Position numbers and translations under genes: made by a program. The notes beneath the pieces are model-generated. The model made no database searches. It was not told the DNA's origin and saw nothing but the letters and a program-made list of their open reading frames with translations. This document shows positions 48,983 through 57,654 of a stretch of 64,000 bases of DNA, piece after piece (the first letter of the stretch is position 1; each line of letters starts with the position of its first letter). Origin of the DNA: Candidatus Latescibacterota bacterium (GTDB lineage Bacteria > Latescibacterota > CBDEFO01); the NCBI GenBank assembly GCA_965248755.1, contig OZ252149.1:3680001-3744000 (forward strand), in the 5' to 3' direction.

Positions 48983-49882
48983 TCACAGTTGTCTAACAGG
49001 ATTGGAAAGGACGCCTATATTCTCTATCTCTATCTCCACACGGTCGCCCTCCTTGAGGGCAAGGTCGTTGGGAACCATTATCCCTGTGCCGGTCGATACG
49101 GCAGTCCCCACCGGTATATAGTTATCCCTTAGAAGATATTCGGTCAGCTCCTCCAATTTCCTGTCTAAGAGAGAGGAACTGACGGATTCCTCAAACGCCA
49201 TCTTCCCGCCTTTGAATATGCGGCATGAGATATTCAGATCGTAGGGATCTTCTATCTCAGACGAAGTTACAAGTACAGGCCCCAGGGCACAGCAGCCGAG
49301 ATATATCTTGGACTGAGGGAGATAGAGGGGATTGTCTCTTTCTATATCCCACGCGGAAACGTCGTTGCAGACGGTGTATCCGACAATTTGACCATCTTTT
49401 CCAAGGACGTATGCTAATTCAGCTTCTACGGCTGTGATACTGGAGTCGCTGCGTATGCAGATGCAGCCGTTGGGACCGACGCACCTTTCGGGGGTGGCTT
49501 TGAAGAAGAGTTCCGGCCTTTGGCTGTTATAGACCCTGGCGTATATGTCCTCTTGAGCATCTCTATCCCTTTCGTCGGCGCTCCTCTTGTACGTCACTCC
49601 AAAGGCCCAGACCTCAGGCGGATATAGCGGAATCTCAAGATAGGCTTTGGAACTATCGGGGGCGACGTTTAGTTCGGCGTAGGAGAATTCATCAGCGTCT
49701 TTTCCGTTCAGAGCACCCTCTACAATCTCCTCAATGGCCAGATCATCGTCACAGCTCTTTATCAATATATCGTTGACTGTGCTAAGCCCAGAATCAGCCG
49801 AGGTTATATCCTTTATAGTATCGCCTTCTAAGATGCCTGCTCTGACCCCGGAATCGGGCAGATGAAATTGAACTAGTTTCAT
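48983..49882 (-). CDS. Fumarylacetoacetate hydrolase family protein
   Basis: RPELFFKA, EAELA, CNDVSAWDIE, STGTG. Confidence 0.9.
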   Translation of the reverse strand: MKLVQFHLPDSGVRAGILEGDTIKDITSADSGLSTVNDILIKSCDDDLAIEEIVEGALNGKDADEFSYAELNVAPDSSKAYLEIPLYPPEVWAFGVTYKRSADERDRDAQEDIYARVYNSQRPELFFKATPERCVGPNGCICIRSDSSITAVEAELAYVLGKDGQIVGYTVCNDVSAWDIERDNPLYLPQSKIYLGCCALGPVLVTSSEIEDPYDLNISCRIFKGGKMAFEESVSSSLLDRKLEELTEYLLRDNYIPVGTAVSTGTGIMVPNDLALKEGDRVEIEIENIGVLSNPVRQL

Positions 49883-50047
49883 TGTGTTTGCTCCTATGCT
49901 CAAGCCGCATTTTCAAAAGCTCTGTGAATCCCTACCAAACGTGGAAGGATCTTAACAATTACACACTTACATGCATGACTAGCGAAAGTGAACAGAGGCA
50001 TGAAACACTTGGTGAGGAGTTCCTTGATGTTTCTGACAGTGCGTGAG

Positions 50048-52284
50048 TTAGGCAGAATGTGACTTGATCTTCAATCGCTCCCAGTAATTGCTCATGCTTA
50101 CATACGATTCCTTATCAACACTCTTCAAATACTTCAACCAACCACCTACAGAGTTTTCGCTTGTATACTTGCTGTCCTTGCTCAAGTCGAATAGGAGATG
50201 ATGCATAACAGCTCTCATTTGTCTTTTCTTCTTTCGCCCAATACCGATTTTGGGTTCAGAGCTATTCTTAACCAGCCCGGTGATCGAACTGTACTGCCCC
50301 CCAGAAAAGCGACATCAATTAAGCAACTTGGGGTAGCAGATAAAATTGTTTTCTCCACTCTTCCGGGGTCTTGTATCCCAGAGATGAATGAAGCCAGTTC
50401 TTGTTGTAATTATCGATCCACTGAGATATGATCTTCTCAGCTTGTTCAAAGGACTTGAAATTGTGAAGCCACACACACTCCTGCTTGAGGGTCCTGAAAA
50501 AACGTTCTATGACCCCGTTCCAATCGGCCTTTCCGCTCGGAATATATTCTTGACGAATGTCCCAATATTCGGTACTTGCCAAATAGGTCCGAGACAAAAA
50601 GATGGAGCCGTTGTCAGAGCGCAAAGTGAGACCCTGGGGGACAGCCTCCTTAGGAAGTGTATCGAGAGATCACGGCCCGATCCAGGGCATCTGTGGCCTC
50701 CAGTGCCCTCCCTTTTCGACTAAAACGATACCCGGGGAACCTCCCGACTCCCGTTGTCCACCACCGCAATAAGAGGACACCAACCATCTTCCCCACAATA
50801 GATCTTGGTCAAGTCAGCCGACCAGAGACTGTCAGGACGATCCATCACAGAACGCTTCTGGGCAACCTGTGGCCCCTTTCTCCCGGGGTCCCCGATTGAT
50901 TCTATCGGGGATTCCACAGCTTACACTGCCACCCCTTAAGCTTCATTATCCTATGAACCTTCTTGATGTTGACATATGCCCCTTCCTTGAAACGAAGATG
51001 CGCCCAAACCCGCCTGTGACCAAATGCCTCTTCTTGGTCGAGTATCCCTCGAATACGAAAAGCAAGCTGTTCATCTATCACAGACTCTTCGACAGAAGAA
51101 CTGACACCTCTATACCTAAGCCTACACAGAGTCGAACGATGCAAACCCAAAGCCAAAGCTACCACCTTCCGGGAATAGCCTCGACCCAAAAACCGCTCAC
51201 TCAAGGCAACCGCTTCGTTTTTTTTAGACGGGCTACCTCCTCGAGTATCTCCAACTGGAGGGTTAAGTGCCCTACCTTACGCTCCAACCGGCTGACCTCC
51301 CGCTCCTTCGCATCCTTGCGACCACGCCGAGACTTCAGACTCTCCTGGCCTCCTTCCAAGAAACTATCACGCCAAGCATACGCCTGTGACTGGCTAATTC
51401 CATTCTTCCAACACACCTCTGATACATTCGCTCCTTTCAAAACAGCCAACACCACCTCTACCTTACGGGTCGCCGTCCAGCGCTTACCATCTTTCACTTC
51501 GGGGCTTGACACCTTGACCTCCTTTCTCAAACCCCAATTTGCAAAATATTTGTCGCCCTGTCAAGGGGAGCGGTATGGAACATCTCTTTCTTGGGCCTAG
51601 GACCCTTAATTTATCAAGATTGAGTTTAAAGTGTTCCGACTTAATAATCTTCAAAACTATGGACAACGATTGGCAAAGCACTTTTGGATTATTTGAAGAG
51701 AAGGTTAAGTCATCTGCGTACCTAGTATATATAATATTTCTTCTCGATGTATAACCTGCAATTCTTCTATCAAGTTTCGCTGCAATTAGATTTGATAATG
51801 AGGGGGAAGTAACAGCACCCTGGGGTAAGTTGCCATCGCAAGTACAAAGATTGGCAAGAGTAGGGGCAGCCTTATTGGAATATCCAATGAGTGAGAACAC
51901 TTTTGCCACACGTCTTATCGAAATGGAAGGAAAAAAATCTTCTAGATCCAAACATATGAAGTATCTGTTGTTACTATGAGGAGATACATTCCCCAAAATG
52001 CCCCTTTGTAGAATGTAAGCCGTAGCATATGGGGAAGGACTTAGCTTATCTAGAATATTTCTGAGTATCCAAGCCTGTATTCCCTTCAAATCTTTTCTGG
52101 GTTGTCTGATTTCGCGCAAAGTACCATTCGATTTCGGTATCGAATACCTTTTGTAGTATCTGCGTGAAAACTCACTAAGCATTACAACCAGCCCTCTGTC
52201 AACGTGCATCAACTCTGCCAGTTCCTTTTGATCAGAGAACACAGGTAGATCCATTAGTCTCAACAGTGCGAAATTACTATTCAT
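50048..52284 (-). pseudogene. Retron reverse transcriptase interrupted by an IS3-family element (314 aa when reconstructed)
   Basis: LDLEDFFPSI, LPQGAVTSPSLSN, YTRYADDL; removing the IS and one GAAC restores RKRCSITGLVKN...GWLKYLKSVD...SHSA*. Confidence 0.92.
50290..51577 (-). mobile_element. IS3-family element, 1288 bp, 4-bp TSD GAAC; orfA 51201-51530, orfB broken
   Basis: Imperfect IRs TGTACTGCCCCCC...GCGACA / CATACCGCTCCCC...GCGACA; GAAC at 50286-50289 and 51578-51581; WSADLT, RSDNGS, IERFFRTLKQE DDE motifs in three frames. Confidence 0.88.
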
Positions 52285-52291
52285 TAGAATT

Positions 52292-52484
52292 TATGGGGCG
52301 AAACAAAAGTCACTTACTCAAAGCATCGCGCAGCGACATGAAATCACGACCTGATGTCGCCTTGAACGGTTTTCTTCAGAAAACCGTTCGAACAGTAATG
52401 GGTCAGTTTACATCCGGAGTGGCGAAACACCACTCAGCTCGTCAGATGACAAGCCTGACTAAGATCATTTTGTTTCACCCCATA
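52292..52484 (-). ncRNA. Retron msr-msd non-coding RNA
   Basis: 17-bp terminal inverted repeat (52292-52308 / 52468-52484, one G-U); CUUAG branch-G context (G at 52459); msr hairpins including GAGUGG-UGUUUCG-CCACUC; msd hairpins 52333-52360 and 52364-52389. Confidence 0.88.
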
Positions 52485-53370
52485 TTCTCCTATAATTCTT
52501 TCTGAGCGTTAAATTTAGAGCACCTAATCTGAGTTCGGTTAAGAATGACGAAAGTATTCGTGCGCTCTTCTGTGTCTTATTTGCGTACATCAGATTCTCT
52601 ATCCCTGCAAGGGTTGTGGACAGAACTCCTGAATTAAGCGATACTTTTCTTTCTCCGACTAAGCTGTTTATCGCCGTTTCTGCGGCAGTCGCTACAGTCT
52701 TTTCTTCAGTGTTCGCCAGTTTACTTGAGATCTCAATGATTGCAGCTCTTGGTATCGGCTCAAATACATAGATTAATGCCAAGTAGAATCTGTACGCAGA
52801 AATAGGATTCGATAAATCTCTTATTGGTGTAGCATGTTGCGCCACAGCACGTGAGGCATCCGCTATTTGCTTGACGACAGCCTCTAAATTGCTACTTTCC
52901 ATCGACAGATCAAGAACTCTGCTTTTGGTCTTCGTTCTCAGGTATCGAATTGGTCCAAGATTAATAAAGCTTTTCGCTCGAGCAAACTTTGGATTAATCA
53001 CAACAATCAGCTTGTCCCTTAACTTCTCGTGATTTGTAAACGCACCTAGTTCAGTGAAAGTTCCTGGACTTTGGAGTAGAATGACGACAGCATCTACACC
53101 ATTAGCTAGAAGATTTTCTAAAGTTAGCAAGTCGTGTTTTTGATGTCCAAGGATCAGCTCGATAAACATATCTTCCGGATAGTATATAGAATATCTGTAT
53201 TTAGAGACTATCCCGGATATTCCGTCACCAACATCTCTTCTAAATCTCGTTTCTTCTGAAGAACTGCCACCACAAAGAAAGATTGATACTTCCTTTCTGT
53301 CTTGGACTTCATCTAAGAAGAAGTTCCTTAACTGTTCTGCTACTTCCATAACCTTGGAATTCAAAATCAA
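52465..53370 (-). CDS. Retron effector, Ec86/St85-like (NDT-like domain plus probable winged helix)
   Basis: SIFLCGG, YPEDMF, LLTLENLLA, QSPGTFTELGAF, KSFINLGPIRYL; adjacent to msr-msd and RT. Confidence 0.85.
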   Translation of the reverse strand: MILNSKVMEVAEQLRNFFLDEVQDRKEVSIFLCGGSSSEETRFRRDVGDGISGIVSKYRYSIYYPEDMFIELILGHQKHDLLTLENLLANGVDAVVILLQSPGTFTELGAFTNHEKLRDKLIVVINPKFARAKSFINLGPIRYLRTKTKSRVLDLSMESSNLEAVVKQIADASRAVAQHATPIRDLSNPISAYRFYLALIYVFEPIPRAAIIEISSKLANTEEKTVATAAETAINSLVGERKVSLNSGVLSTTLAGIENLMYANKTQKSARILSSFLTELRLGALNLTLRKNYRRIWGETK

Positions 53371-53421
53371 AAATTCTCCGCTCTAATTGCAAAATGCCAG
53401 AGCACCGATAAGAATTGGTCT

Positions 53422-53553
53422 CTACTGAGCATACCCTGCATCAATATACGCGCTAACTTGCTTATTGTCAATCCAAAATACACCCTTAATCCCCCAAGGA
53501 TAAGCCACGTAACCATCAGGATGTTTTTCAACGATAATCTTGAATTGTCTCAT
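53422..53553 (-). pseudogene. Truncated HicB-like antitoxin N-terminus
   Basis: MRQFKIIVEKHPDGYVAYPWGIKGV then resemblance is lost; AGGAGG RBS. Confidence 0.55.
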
Positions 53554-53608
53554 AAGAATTCCCTCCTAACCTGTGATGACGTACTTGGCTTTGATCTTTA
53601 TCATTAGT

Positions 53609-54685
53609 TTAGATAGGTAAATGCACTAATCTCCCTTTTTCGCTCGACTCGTATGCGGCCTCCACAATCTCCATGACTCTTAGTGCGTCCTCTCCGCTGG
53701 AGGGAGATTCGACATCTCCCCTCATGGCAGCCCTTACAAACTGCCTCATAAACTCCAGTCCGTGCATGCTCCCATAAGCTTCACTATGGGCCATAGTATA
53801 GCTAAATTTCCGCACCGGAGCCGCTTTCCACTCATCTTTTGCGCTTTCTACTTTCAAGGACACCTCTGGGTTCTGGGGATCCCAGGATATGTTTCCCAAG
53901 TCTCCCTTGATAGTTATATATGTATCGTATGAGGCTCCGTAGTAGCCTGCTGCGCTGCTTGGGAGCATATATCCCGCCTGCATTGTCCCAAGTGCTCCAC
54001 TTCTGAACCTCATGGACACAGATGCCGTGTCCTCAACGTCTATATCTTGGCCGCCCAGGGTCGCCACGATGGCCGAGACGGCTTCAACTTCGTCCTGGAG
54101 CATAAACCTCATCTGATCGAACCAGTGGCAGCCAAGCCACGATAGTATCCCTCCTCCTGAGATGCTCTTTTTGAAGAGCCAGTGCGTGGGATCTCGAAAC
54201 TTGACCTGAGATGTGACCATTCTGGCCTCCATGGCCATAATCCTACCTAAATAGCCCTCCTCTACCAATCTCCTTATCTCTTTGCACAACGGATGAGATC
54301 GCCACGGATAGCACACGCCCATGCAGACTCCTGATTTATTGACCTCTTCAATATTTCGCCTTATGGTCCGGGAGTTATTAGCGGTTGGCTTTTCCGCCAT
54401 GATGTGCTTTTTTGCCTCTGCCGCTTTAAAGATAGCATCTCCGGCCACCTCATTCCTGAGGGCGACAAAGATCATATCAACGTCGTCTCTTTCCAGAAGG
54501 GAATCCAGATCGGTGTAGACATCCTCCACCTTTAATCCGAATTCATCTCGGAACTTAACCAAGTCCTTCTCGTTCTCATCGTAGAGGATGATGGACTCCA
54601 CCTCGTCCATAAGGTCGAGCGTCGTTTTGTGCCCGTGCGAATGCGGATGTGTAACGCCTAAGAGTCCGACCTTTATTCTGGACAA
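53609..54685 (-). CDS. Gfo/Idh/MocA oxidoreductase
   Basis: HIMAEKP, GGGILSWLGCHWFD, VEDTA, AAYESS. Confidence 0.9.
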   Translation of the reverse strand: MSRIKVGLLGVTHPHSHGHKTTLDLMDEVESIILYDENEKDLVKFRDEFGLKVEDVYTDLDSLLERDDVDMIFVALRNEVAGDAIFKAAEAKKHIMAEKPTANNSRTIRRNIEEVNKSGVCMGVCYPWRSHPLCKEIRRLVEEGYLGRIMAMEARMVTSQVKFRDPTHWLFKKSISGGGILSWLGCHWFDQMRFMLQDEVEAVSAIVATLGGQDIDVEDTASVSMRFRSGALGTMQAGYMLPSSAAGYYGASYDTYITIKGDLGNISWDPQNPEVSLKVESAKDEWKAAPVRKFSYTMAHSEAYGSMHGLEFMRQFVRAAMRGDVESPSSGEDALRVMEIVEAAYESSEKGRLVHLPI

Positions 54686-56038: not shown

Positions 56039-56387
56039 AGCCTCTTCCGGATATTAAATCAGTAGACGGTAGCCCCCGAATGATTCTATCGGGGATCGGG
56101 GGTAGGGAGGGACTCCTCCGTCCTCCATCTATGCTACCCACTTTTTTTCACAGTGTCAAGACTTTTTTCACAGTTGGGCTTGGAAAGTGTAAATCTCACT
56201 GAAAAAATGACCTGAAGAGACAGCAACTCGGCTCTTTCGCGAACCGACAGTCACTCGCTTACACTTTTAGAACTTGACAGAAGGAAGGAAATTCATTGCA
56301 TTGTAAGGCAGTTATCTATACAGAGGAGCACTATCTTGCTTAGTGCAGACGCTCTGGTCTGCCCCCATACAAAAAAGGAGTGCAAAA

Positions 56388-57654
56388 ATGGCTGTCGAGT
56401 CCGCAGGGTCCAGTGCAGCAGGTGACCCCCATAATGGACGCAGCAAGAATGGTAAAGGTGAACAGTTCTCCAAGATGCCCATAGACTCAGTCTTGTCGCT
56501 GGATGGTCTGTCCGACAGGGCAAAGCTTGTGTATGCTGCTATCCAAAAGTGGGACTGGGGGCAAGGATGTTTTGCAGGGCACAAGAATATAGCCGAAGTC
56601 CTCAGAAGGTCTGAAAGCACTGTAAAAAGGGGAGTCAAGGAACTCAAAGACTCAGGACTTGTAACTATAAAATATGAAGGTCGCGGTCTCAATGCAGCGA
56701 TTTATGTCCTGCAAGATCAAGACAGGTCAGATGTGACCTCTCAAGATCAAGACAGGTCAGATGTGACCTCTCAAGATCAAGACAGGTCAGATGTGACCGC
56801 TCAAGATCAAGACAGGTCAGATGTGACCTCTCAAGATCAAGACAGATCAGATGTGACCCATCTAGACAGCTCAGATGTGACCTCTCTAAACAGGTTAGAT
56901 CTGACCTATCCTTACAATATAACAGACGACTTGGAAATAGACGACTTAGAAACAGACGACACACCTCATGCATGCGGTGATGCTGGCGGTGATAATGACT
57001 TCTCAAAAAGCAAAAGGGAAATAGTCATCCAGTTCTACAGAAAACTTGATCTGCCAGAGGTGTCCAAGAGCTATATAAAGCTTGGCATAAGGCTCATAAC
57101 TAGGCTTGAGAGGCAGGGATACAGTCTTGAGCAAATAGATCTATGCCGCAAGCTGGACACTGGATAATTGCCTTCCAAAGCACTTCGGGCTAGTTGCGCA
57201 TACGATCGGTGAGGCATTGGCGGAAAGGCACAGAAATATCGAACAGGAGCGCATAAGACAGGAACAAATAGTGCGAGAGGAGGAACGTAAGATAGCTCAA
57301 GACGCCAAGCTGCAGGAAGAAGCACAAGAAAGGAATAGAATAATTGACCGATCTCCATACAAAAAGGAGTGGGATCGCTACAGGGAGCTGATTAGAGCGG
57401 AGATTAAGCATCAGTCATACATGACGTGGTTTACTGGGCTTTACATAGATGAGTTATCCGACGGACAGGTAACTTTGAATGTCCCTCACAGGTTCATGGC
57501 TGACTTCATAGGAGAAAATTACGACAAATTGCTAAGGGATATATTCCAGAGAGACGTGAAGCTTCAATTAGAGAGTAGCCCCCGCTCCCCCCCGATAGAA
57601 TCATTCGGGGGCAGCGAAGCCTCTGAGATTGCTTCGTCAGACAGGAATGTCTGA
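56388..57654 (+). pseudogene. HTH + DnaA-N-domain replication initiator-like gene, frameshift at about 57141
   Basis: LSDRAKLVY...IAEVLRRSESTVKRGVKELKDSGLV HTH; removing one base gives EQIDYAASWTLDNCLPKHFGLV...; C-terminal SYMTWFTGLYI...VTLNVPHRFMADFIGENY resembles DnaA domain I. Confidence 0.65.
56712..56909 (+). repeat. Intragenic tandem array: five 30-bp and two 24-bp units with palindromic core AGGTCA-GATG-TGACCT
   Basis: CAAGATCAAGACAGGTCAGATGTGACCTCT units start at 56712, 56742, 56772, 56802, 56832; degenerate units at 56862 and 56886. Confidence 0.95.

Follow-up and report, generated by a model that had tools for sequence, protein, structure and literature searches.

Positions 50048 to 53370 of a 64,000-nucleotide stretch of the genome of Candidatus Latescibacterota bacterium (contig OZ252149.1, positions 3,680,001 to 3,744,000; hereafter the window) hold a retron consisting of an effector gene, an msr-msd non-coding RNA (ncRNA), and a reverse transcriptase (RT) gene, the last of which is interrupted by an insertion sequence (IS) of the IS3 family. 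The locus is a type II-A3 retron and belongs with Ec86 (Retron-Eco1), on the evidence of profiles, the predicted effector fold, two RT trees, and an approximately unbiased (AU) test, and we consider it very likely that it is a horizontally acquired anti-phage retron of this type that was recently inactivated. Within this account, the parts of the system, their family, the gene order, the covariation in the RNA, and the insertion site are directly supported. A sequence-only reading of the window had described a complete type II-A retron at this place; the assignment to type II-A (RT, msr/msd, and NDT-like effector) agrees with both profiles and fold, while completeness applies to the state before the insertion and not to the locus as it stands, in which region Y of the RT is cut off. 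The features that carry the argument are given below in window positions, with multicopy single-stranded DNA abbreviated as msDNA.

52465..53370, minus strand: RcaT / Ec86-type effector, NDT-like domain and winged helix, 301 aa, intact (profiles, BLAST, fold)
52292..52484, minus strand: msr-msd non-coding RNA, 193 nt (inverted repeat, folding, covariation)
52484-52468, minus strand: msr-msd a1 arm
52463-52459, minus strand: CUUAG motif of the msr-msd
52459, minus strand: predicted branching (priming) guanosine, in the alignment column of the Ec86 CUUAG G (function by homology)
52454-52437 and 52435-52417, minus strand: msr stem-loops 1 and 2
52389-52364 and 52360-52333, minus strand: msd hairpins
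52317-52313 and 52308-52292, minus strand: msr-msd a2 arm
52318..~52407, plus strand: predicted msDNA of ~90 nt with two hairpins, both ends placed by analogy with Ec86
51578..52284, minus strand: 5' part of the retron RT, NVSPH at 99 and YADD at 189 (RT profiles, frame check)
50048..50289, minus strand: severed 3' part of the retron RT (region Y / thumb, ~78 codons; NF038233 positions 225-287, PDLC02941 positions 234-301)
50290..51577, minus strand: IS3-family element, 1,288 bp (genome BLAST, transposase profiles)
51201-51530, minus strand: IS3 orfA
50902-51204, 50720-50917, and 50319-50624, minus strand: IS3 orfB, broken into three frames
50286-50289 and 51578-51581, both IS flanks: 4-bp target duplication GAAC

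The effector open reading frame (ORF), correctly picked out by the sequence-only reading as an AT-rich frame of 301 aa, has a GC content of 40.3%, compared with 39.3% in the 5' part of the RT gene and 48.9% in the whole genome; its start codon is TTG, and an alternative ATG seven codons in would give 294 aa. The protein matches NCBIfam NF038232 at 150.3 bits (cut-off 100), the PADLOC NDT_II-A model PDLC02930 (E 5e-67), and the structurally solved Ec86 effector (E 2e-35), and it matches no family in the Pfam copy searched. Its predicted structure (pLDDT 84.7; model from a 49-sequence alignment) returned the Eco1 effector as the top three Foldseek matches (TM 0.71–0.74), which bears out the NDT-like fold proposed earlier. 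The layout expected of type II-A is present, with an N-terminal NDT-like domain, a C-terminal winged-helix domain, and the catalytic Glu. Specifically, E66, S101, E107, and S134 correspond to E65, S100, E106, and S133 of Ec86, reported as highly conserved and required for defence (preprint 10.1101/2023.08.16.553469). Ec86 F128 and N136 are retained as well, and E106 and S133 are kept in all 71 spacer-type relatives. In a FastTree tree of effectors the window protein falls on the Ec86 side (support 92).

The RT, which matches the PADLOC RT model PDLC02941 (E 4.8e-90), lies in two pieces that are in frame with each other. Bridging the insertion gives a frame of 945 nt and 314 codons with one stop; if the duplication is included twice, the frame has 949 nt and five stops. 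In the pre-insertion frame NVSPH lies at residue 99, YADD at 189, and ITG at 237, and only in this frame is the full set of retron RT motifs found (YADD, region X NAXXH, region Y at VTG); region X of the window has V for A, and a V-to-I change in VTG is known from RT-Vch2 (PMC6868368). The earlier proposal of an IS-interrupted, reconstructable 314-aa RT with a YADD motif, co-oriented with the other two parts, is thereby upheld. In the assembled genome the RT is not intact: the IS3 takes off the 77 C-terminal residues, from T238 onward, and the present gene product is 266 aa long, of which 237 residues are native and 29 IS-encoded. Deletion of region Y is reported to abolish msr binding in RT-Eco1 and RT-Eco3 (PMC6868368), and because the IS removes all of this msr-binding part, msDNA is unlikely to be made. 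A tblastn search of the genome found no second retron RT or effector, and the sole other RT found is DRT8-type; complementation in trans was dropped as a candidate for this reason. Because region Y is gone and no second retron RT was found, we expect the system to be off. As a separate observation, a 513-aa open frame ~1.2 kb before the window start (L155:1288-2829, minus strand) matches PADLOC Drt8 (E 1e-140) and represents a second, unrelated defence RT.

Between the effector stop codon and the RT ATG lies a spacer of 180 nt, and the structured RNA is 193 nt long because its 5' arm lies within the final 20 nt of the effector ORF. A structured spacer of 190 nt had been claimed, and the structure is confirmed. 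The inverted repeat that closes the msr-msd is the longest within 49500–54000, and the folding energy of a 206-nt stretch is −86.8 kcal/mol (z = −8.0), a value that none of 200 shuffled sequences reached. The parts of a retron RNA are all there, with adjacent msr and msd, a1/a2 repeats, a branching G, msr stem-loops, and an msd hairpin. We aligned the window RNA with that of Ec86 and with those of 23 of 72 candidate relatives, namely the closer ones. All 25 aligned RNAs have the branch G of CUUAG; RNAalifold predicts 30 pairs, with a compensatory change in 22; and of the 42 pairs in the window fold, 31 have changed on both sides. For these 42 pairs, 90.3% of the cells are paired versus 79.0% after shuffling (0 of 500 as high) and 41–50% on slid controls, figures that are supportive and are not p-values, because the structure comes from one row, the sequences are related, and the 3' half of Ec86 is poorly aligned. 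With an automatic pick, the best inverted repeat begins inside the effector gene in 64 of 73 loci. A search of Rfam with the window RNA gave no retron RNA family and a single chance match (E 0.63).

With regard to subtype, Ec73, St85, and Vc81 are assigned to type II-A1 (RT clade 1) and Ec86 to type II-A3 (clade 9) by Mestre et al. 2020 (PMC7736814), and the former three are described as having an extra ORF between msr-msd and RT (PMC11701397, PMC6868368). In E. coli BL21(DE3), the native Ec86 locus has a 307-aa effector, then 162 nt, and then a 320-aa RT, and the final base of the effector stop codon is also that of the Ec86 CTTAG. Because native Ec86 thus runs effector-ncRNA-RT, the order in the window is that of Ec86 and not, as the sequence-only reading had it, that of Ec73, which is ncRNA-effector-RT; for the same reason, gene order was dropped as a novelty. 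The type II-A1 arrangement is absent, the window RNA sitting between effector and RT. We also considered whether this is a type II-A1 retron of the Ec73/St85 kind whose genes have been reordered, as the sequence-only reading implied; in favour of this one can cite that NCBIfam labels both proteins "St85 family" and that the effector lies ahead of the RT as in Ec73. Because NCBIfam names the Ec86 proteins alike, the label does not separate the subtypes, and in Ec73 the RNA is described as lying upstream of the effector. Moreover, the best PADLOC models, PDLC02941 and PDLC02930, are common to the window and Ec86, whereas an St85-like Vibrio locus prefers PDLC02939 and PDLC02928. The window RT is 37.7% identical to that of Ec86 (212 bits) and 30.4% to the St85-like RT (102 bits), the effector scores 139 bits against Ec86 and 53.5 bits against the St85-like protein, and the RT does not fall in clade 1, which is shared with type I-A, scoring 170 bits to RT-Ec86 versus 69–80 to RT-Ec78/Ec83. 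Two trees, one built quickly from 97 RTs and one built carefully from a hand-chosen subset of 34, set the spacer-type RTs, those of the window and Ec86 among them, apart from effector-adjacent RTs (support 100 and 100/99), so that the reconstructed RT groups with retron Ec86 in both, and the AU test rejected forcing the window RT among the effector-adjacent RTs (p-AU 0.00015). We therefore give a rearranged II-A1 retron next to no credence and treat the locus as type II-A3.

The interrupting element has the makeup of an IS3 element, with an orfA helix-turn-helix, an orfB integrase core, inverted ends, and a short target duplication, and its ORFs match NF033516, rve_3, and HTH_21 in pieces. Its left end starts with CA; TG is the usual left-end start in IS3. 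The genome contains 69 full-length copies (~1.9% of the genome), 48 of them with a 4-bp duplication and 53 with an orfB frame of at least 300 aa. They fall into two groups that are ~91% alike, one autonomous (1,266 bp) and one non-autonomous (1,288 bp). The latter comprises 15 copies including the window one, which are at least 99.8% alike, have a broken orfB, and carry clean target duplications in 13 of 15 cases; because orfB is broken, this subfamily would have to move in trans. Six copies, among them that of the window, are identical, which suggests that the insertion is recent. The IS3 family is also present in a genome of the same genus (G001).

The same genome indicates how the retron may have arrived. 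G001 is 94–95% identical to the window on both sides of the locus, the similarity ending at 53480 and 49895, and its sequence between those points holds an ORF of 74 aa and a gene for HicA (PF07927, E 2.5e-8; L143:1028-1491). The small gene matched no HicB family, and a "hicB-like" label would be taken from its position alone. Two features mark the upstream edge of the cassette:

53480..53553, minus strand: 5' remnant (~25 codons) of the small gene preceding hicA in G001, forming the upstream edge of the cassette (95% match to G001)
53443..53471, minus strand: sigma-70-like promoter TTGACA-17-TATATT (pattern match only)

The promoter-like site, just inside the cassette edge, has 11 of 12 consensus matches and is the best of nine sites found (5.4 expected). 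Without the IS, the cassette measures 2,293 bp and has a GC content of 40.9% versus 50–51% in the flanks. The simplest reading is that the cassette was gained in place of a toxin-antitoxin pair, although two genomes do not prove the direction. The assembly is 98% complete with 4.76% contamination and comes from a mixed sample.

We propose the following history and mechanism, modelled on Eco1. Before the insertion, a single transcript would have carried effector, msr-msd, and RT, giving the 314-aa RT, which would bind the msr stem via region Y, prime at the CUUAG guanosine, and copy the msd into a two-hairpin msDNA of ~90 nt. The RT-msDNA would bind effector dimers, probably as Eco1-type filaments, until a phage protein acting on the msDNA (a methyltransferase in Eco1) switches on the effector, whose N-glycosidase / NAD+-consuming activity would abort the infection. 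For Eco1, an RT-msDNA filament with effector dimers that is activated by an msDNA-modifying phage enzyme is reported (10.1101/2023.08.16.553469), as is NAD+ hydrolysis with auto-ADP-ribosylation by the effector (as cited in 10.64898/2026.10.13.758329). During the IS expansion, a non-autonomous IS3 copy mobilised in trans would then have landed in the ITG motif and severed region Y, after which there would be neither msDNA nor sensing, and the intact effector would be tolerated. We infer the synthesis of msDNA, the defence function, its loss, and the harmlessness of the orphan effector. Most likely, the retron is switched off in the window genome. Because effectors of the Eco1 clade, specifically RcaT-Eco1, -Vch3, -Bth2, and -Cle1, which are dimeric or predicted dimers, are reported to be non-toxic alone (bioRxiv 10.64898/2026.10.13.758329), the intact orphan effector is probably tolerated. 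Autoimmunity via a host C5 methyltransferase was considered as a cause of the knock-out and is unsupported, PF00145 having no match in the genome at its 98% completeness.

Other explanations of the interrupted locus differ in what they make of the IS and of the effector left behind. It appears improbable to us that the effector is an active toxin whose gene is silent or which growth conditions keep in check, or that it has a role independent of the RT: catalytic E107 is retained, a strong promoter-like site lies upstream, and the RcaTs Sen2, Eco9, and Eco10 are reported as toxic when free (10.64898/2026.10.13.758329), but the window effector falls on the side of the effector tree whose clade is reported as non-toxic, and loci with a broken RT recur among relatives (L113, L101, L002), though loci with a broken effector do too (L126, L130). 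More doubtful still, and in our view very unlikely, is a retron that remains partly active because the 266-aa RT, a separate 3' piece, or excision of the IS restores msDNA or keeps the effector bound, the IS serving as a reversible switch. Although no other lesion is present in the effector, the RNA, the promoter-like site, or either half of the RT, and a group II intron in the RT of another retron is reported not to prevent RT-DNA synthesis (PMC12548924), the lack of decay is accounted for by a recent insertion, the orfB of the window copy is broken, and msr binding is described as needing region Y (PMC6868368); it is also generally known that IS3 elements do not splice. Finally, the IS could be an assembly artefact and the retron intact in the organism, since 69 full-length copies could mislead an assembler working on a mixed sample with 4.76% contamination; the copy is, however, flanked by a 4-bp duplication of the length usual for the family, which is not expected from a misjoin, and we regard an artefact as extremely improbable. 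Among the contigs of four runs of one sample, possibly the source of the assembly, no listed joint skips the IS, although contigs drop rare variants. Flank contigs from three runs end 22–26 bases inside the IS ends, 31 being needed for bridging, and neither observation is counted as evidence. The locus is held by one sample only, and no RNA run with the locus is among those listed.

Several points weigh against an inactivated type II-A3 retron as we describe it. The case rests on sequence and models, msDNA, expression, and defence being predicted. Two ligand-pocket residues of Ec86 are changed in the window effector (D69 to I70, K131 to A132); the D69 column is variable in the 71 spacer-type relatives (I 17, V 16, D 12, E 9, L 5). 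With only 32% identity to RcaT-Eco1, the non-toxicity of the effector is an extrapolation. As for the RNA, the structure tested is the window's own fold and is favoured over the slid controls for that reason, and a plain alignment to the Ec86 RNA is not significant (score 69; shuffles 58.8 ± 6.0, maximum 77), so that sequence likeness to the Ec86 RNA, being no better than in shuffles, was dropped as an argument; the msr motifs do line up. In the phylogeny, type II-A1 is represented by an St85-like locus and 12–21 effector-adjacent RTs as stand-ins for Ec73 itself, the trees have long branches, and the group tested by AU was drawn up after the trees had been seen. The II-A3 grouping was also judged independently of the reference sets of Mestre et al.

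To place the locus among its relatives, we used 139 loci fetched with the effector alignment and not deduplicated. The RT lies downstream on the same strand in 114 of them and upstream in none, with spacers of 100–300 nt in 84, under 100 nt in 27, and over 300 nt in three; the other 25 have no RT match, and in 20 of these less than 1,300 nt of contig is left. Restricting the set to identity of at least 40% over 240 residues leaves 62 loci: 51 of the spacer type, nine that end too soon, one without the RT 5' half, and one without an RT. The hosts span many phyla and one archaeon. A word-index search with the effector found 358 homologues, and among the matches listed 119 besides its own are 48–72% identical; searched as a single query against the genome contigs the effector found no locus, whereas the alignment query found 59. 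Of 30 genomes from this phylum, just two contain a match at all, in each case a distant one, and G001, which belongs to the same genus, lacks a match to the effector alignment. RTs 68–77% identical to that of the window occur on many metagenome contigs, so the locus is not notably divergent, contrary to the earlier view; with 51 of the 62 close loci sharing its layout, it is not unusual either, nor is it hidden from annotation with only a truncated RT visible, as had been supposed, because the effector clears the NF038232 cut-off and single PADLOC models match both proteins. The RTs of L069 and L073 exceed the NF038233 cut-off. Damage is seen elsewhere, too: at L113:926-1939 an IS1595 transposase directly follows a 146-aa RT piece (the effector being cut by the contig start), other broken RTs next to an effector are those of L101 (5' half missing) and L002 (internal stop), an IS630 follows a broken effector at L126:674-2296, and the effector of L130 is also broken. 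A frameshift in L004 may be a sequencing error, because L069 and L078 are intact. Two loci are side observations: L018, from a genome bin of an ANME-1 archaeon, also runs effector-ncRNA-RT, which could reflect real transfer or a binning error, and L104:189-1505 encodes an effector homologue (47%) that is extended to 438 aa and followed by 3.4 kb in which no RT match occurs, possibly a stand-alone or fused form.

The predicted msDNA of the window contains neither CCWGG nor GATC. Methylation of CCWGG is reported as the Ec86 trigger (10.1101/2023.08.16.553469), and GATC is reported as the trigger of Sen2, with Asa1 and Squ1 as further implicated cases (10.64898/2026.10.13.758329; PMC12548924), so a different trigger is possible. 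An 11-nt block near the msDNA 5' end with overlapping GCGC, CGCG, and GCWGC sites is exact in 16 of 73 related RNAs, among which the msd hairpins are otherwise free to vary. We tentatively raise the idea, which we hold to be unlikely, that what this environmental II-A3 sub-clade senses is neither Dcm nor Dam but another DNA-modifying enzyme of phages, with the present locus also being a natural RT-null. Among close relatives, msd length varies freely and the msr is conserved; the first msd hairpin is longer by ~30 nt in L065, L068, L071, and L096, and in L004, L063, L064, L066, and L070 the second is expanded.

Two further observations concern other parts of the window. At 56343-57654 (plus strand), a HTH_36 protein with five tandem "SQDQDRSDVT"-like repeats is followed by a DnaA_N-domain ORF, a pair that resembles a degenerate phage or plasmid replication module. 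The other is a repeat family with one copy inside the IS:

50890..50909, no strand assigned: 20-bp palindrome inserted in the IS orfB (genome-wide repeat family)

In the 15-copy subfamily, the 20 bp inserted into orfB are one copy of this palindrome, with no clear duplication beside them. The imperfect palindrome of ~20 bp has 523 matches in the genome (at most three substitutions) versus 0–2 for five shuffled motifs, and it occurs at 15 other window sites, for example 46906, 48923, 57591, and 57793. Because the genome has no match to the Y1/RAYT transposase (PF01797), a REP-associated (repetitive extragenic palindromic) transposase was dropped as its source; the family is possibly more interesting than the retron.

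By itself the locus matters little, as type II-A3 retrons are already known and structurally solved, a survey of metagenomes published in 2026 (PMC13712802) lists them as a "known-type expansion" and as not novel, and this one is an ordinary member of the type and probably dead. It does correct a mix-up over gene order, and, with its RT knocked out and its effector whole, it fits the idea of non-addictive Eco1-type retrons. If our account is true, a natural RT-null with an intact catalytic effector offers a ready way to ask whether a retron of the Eco1 clade can disappear while its host survives. The sub-clade is also a source of untested RT/ncRNA pairs for single-stranded DNA tools, perhaps with a different trigger, for which intact relatives are better suited.

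Among known systems, Retron-Eco1 (Ec86) resembles the window in the order effector-ncRNA-RT, in an RNA whose 5' end overlaps the last codons of the effector gene, in the CUUAG branch motif and a stem with a UUCG-containing loop, and in its proteins (RT 37.7% and effector 31.6% identical, the same effector fold, four conserved catalytic/pocket residues). Unlike Ec86, the window has an RT broken by an IS3, ITG and NVSPH for VTG and NATPH, an msd of two separate hairpins without CCWGG, and neither D69 nor K131, and it lies on the chromosome between two metabolic genes whereas Ec86 lies in a P2-like prophage. Retron-Eco3 (Ec73) and Retron-Sen2 (St85) share the NCBIfam effector family and an effector gene before the RT, but their RNA is upstream of the effector and their RT belongs to another clade; RcaT-Sen2 is reported as a toxic tetramer-former (10.64898/2026.10.13.758329). 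Retron-Bth1, whose RT is interrupted by a group II intron and is reported to make RT-DNA still (PMC12548924), likewise has an easily missed mobile element in its RT gene, but the window element is a DNA transposon that truncates the RT. The literature searched, mostly without subscription papers, yielded no published IS-inactivated retron RT, and we do not claim that none exists. Closest to the window are uncharacterised environmental II-A3 loci (for example L073, L075, L066, L069, and Atribacteria SCGC AAA255-G05, L004), with effectors 60–64% and RTs 68–77% identical, which share its order, a spacer of about 170–210 nt, and its RNA structure, and most of whose RTs are uninterrupted.

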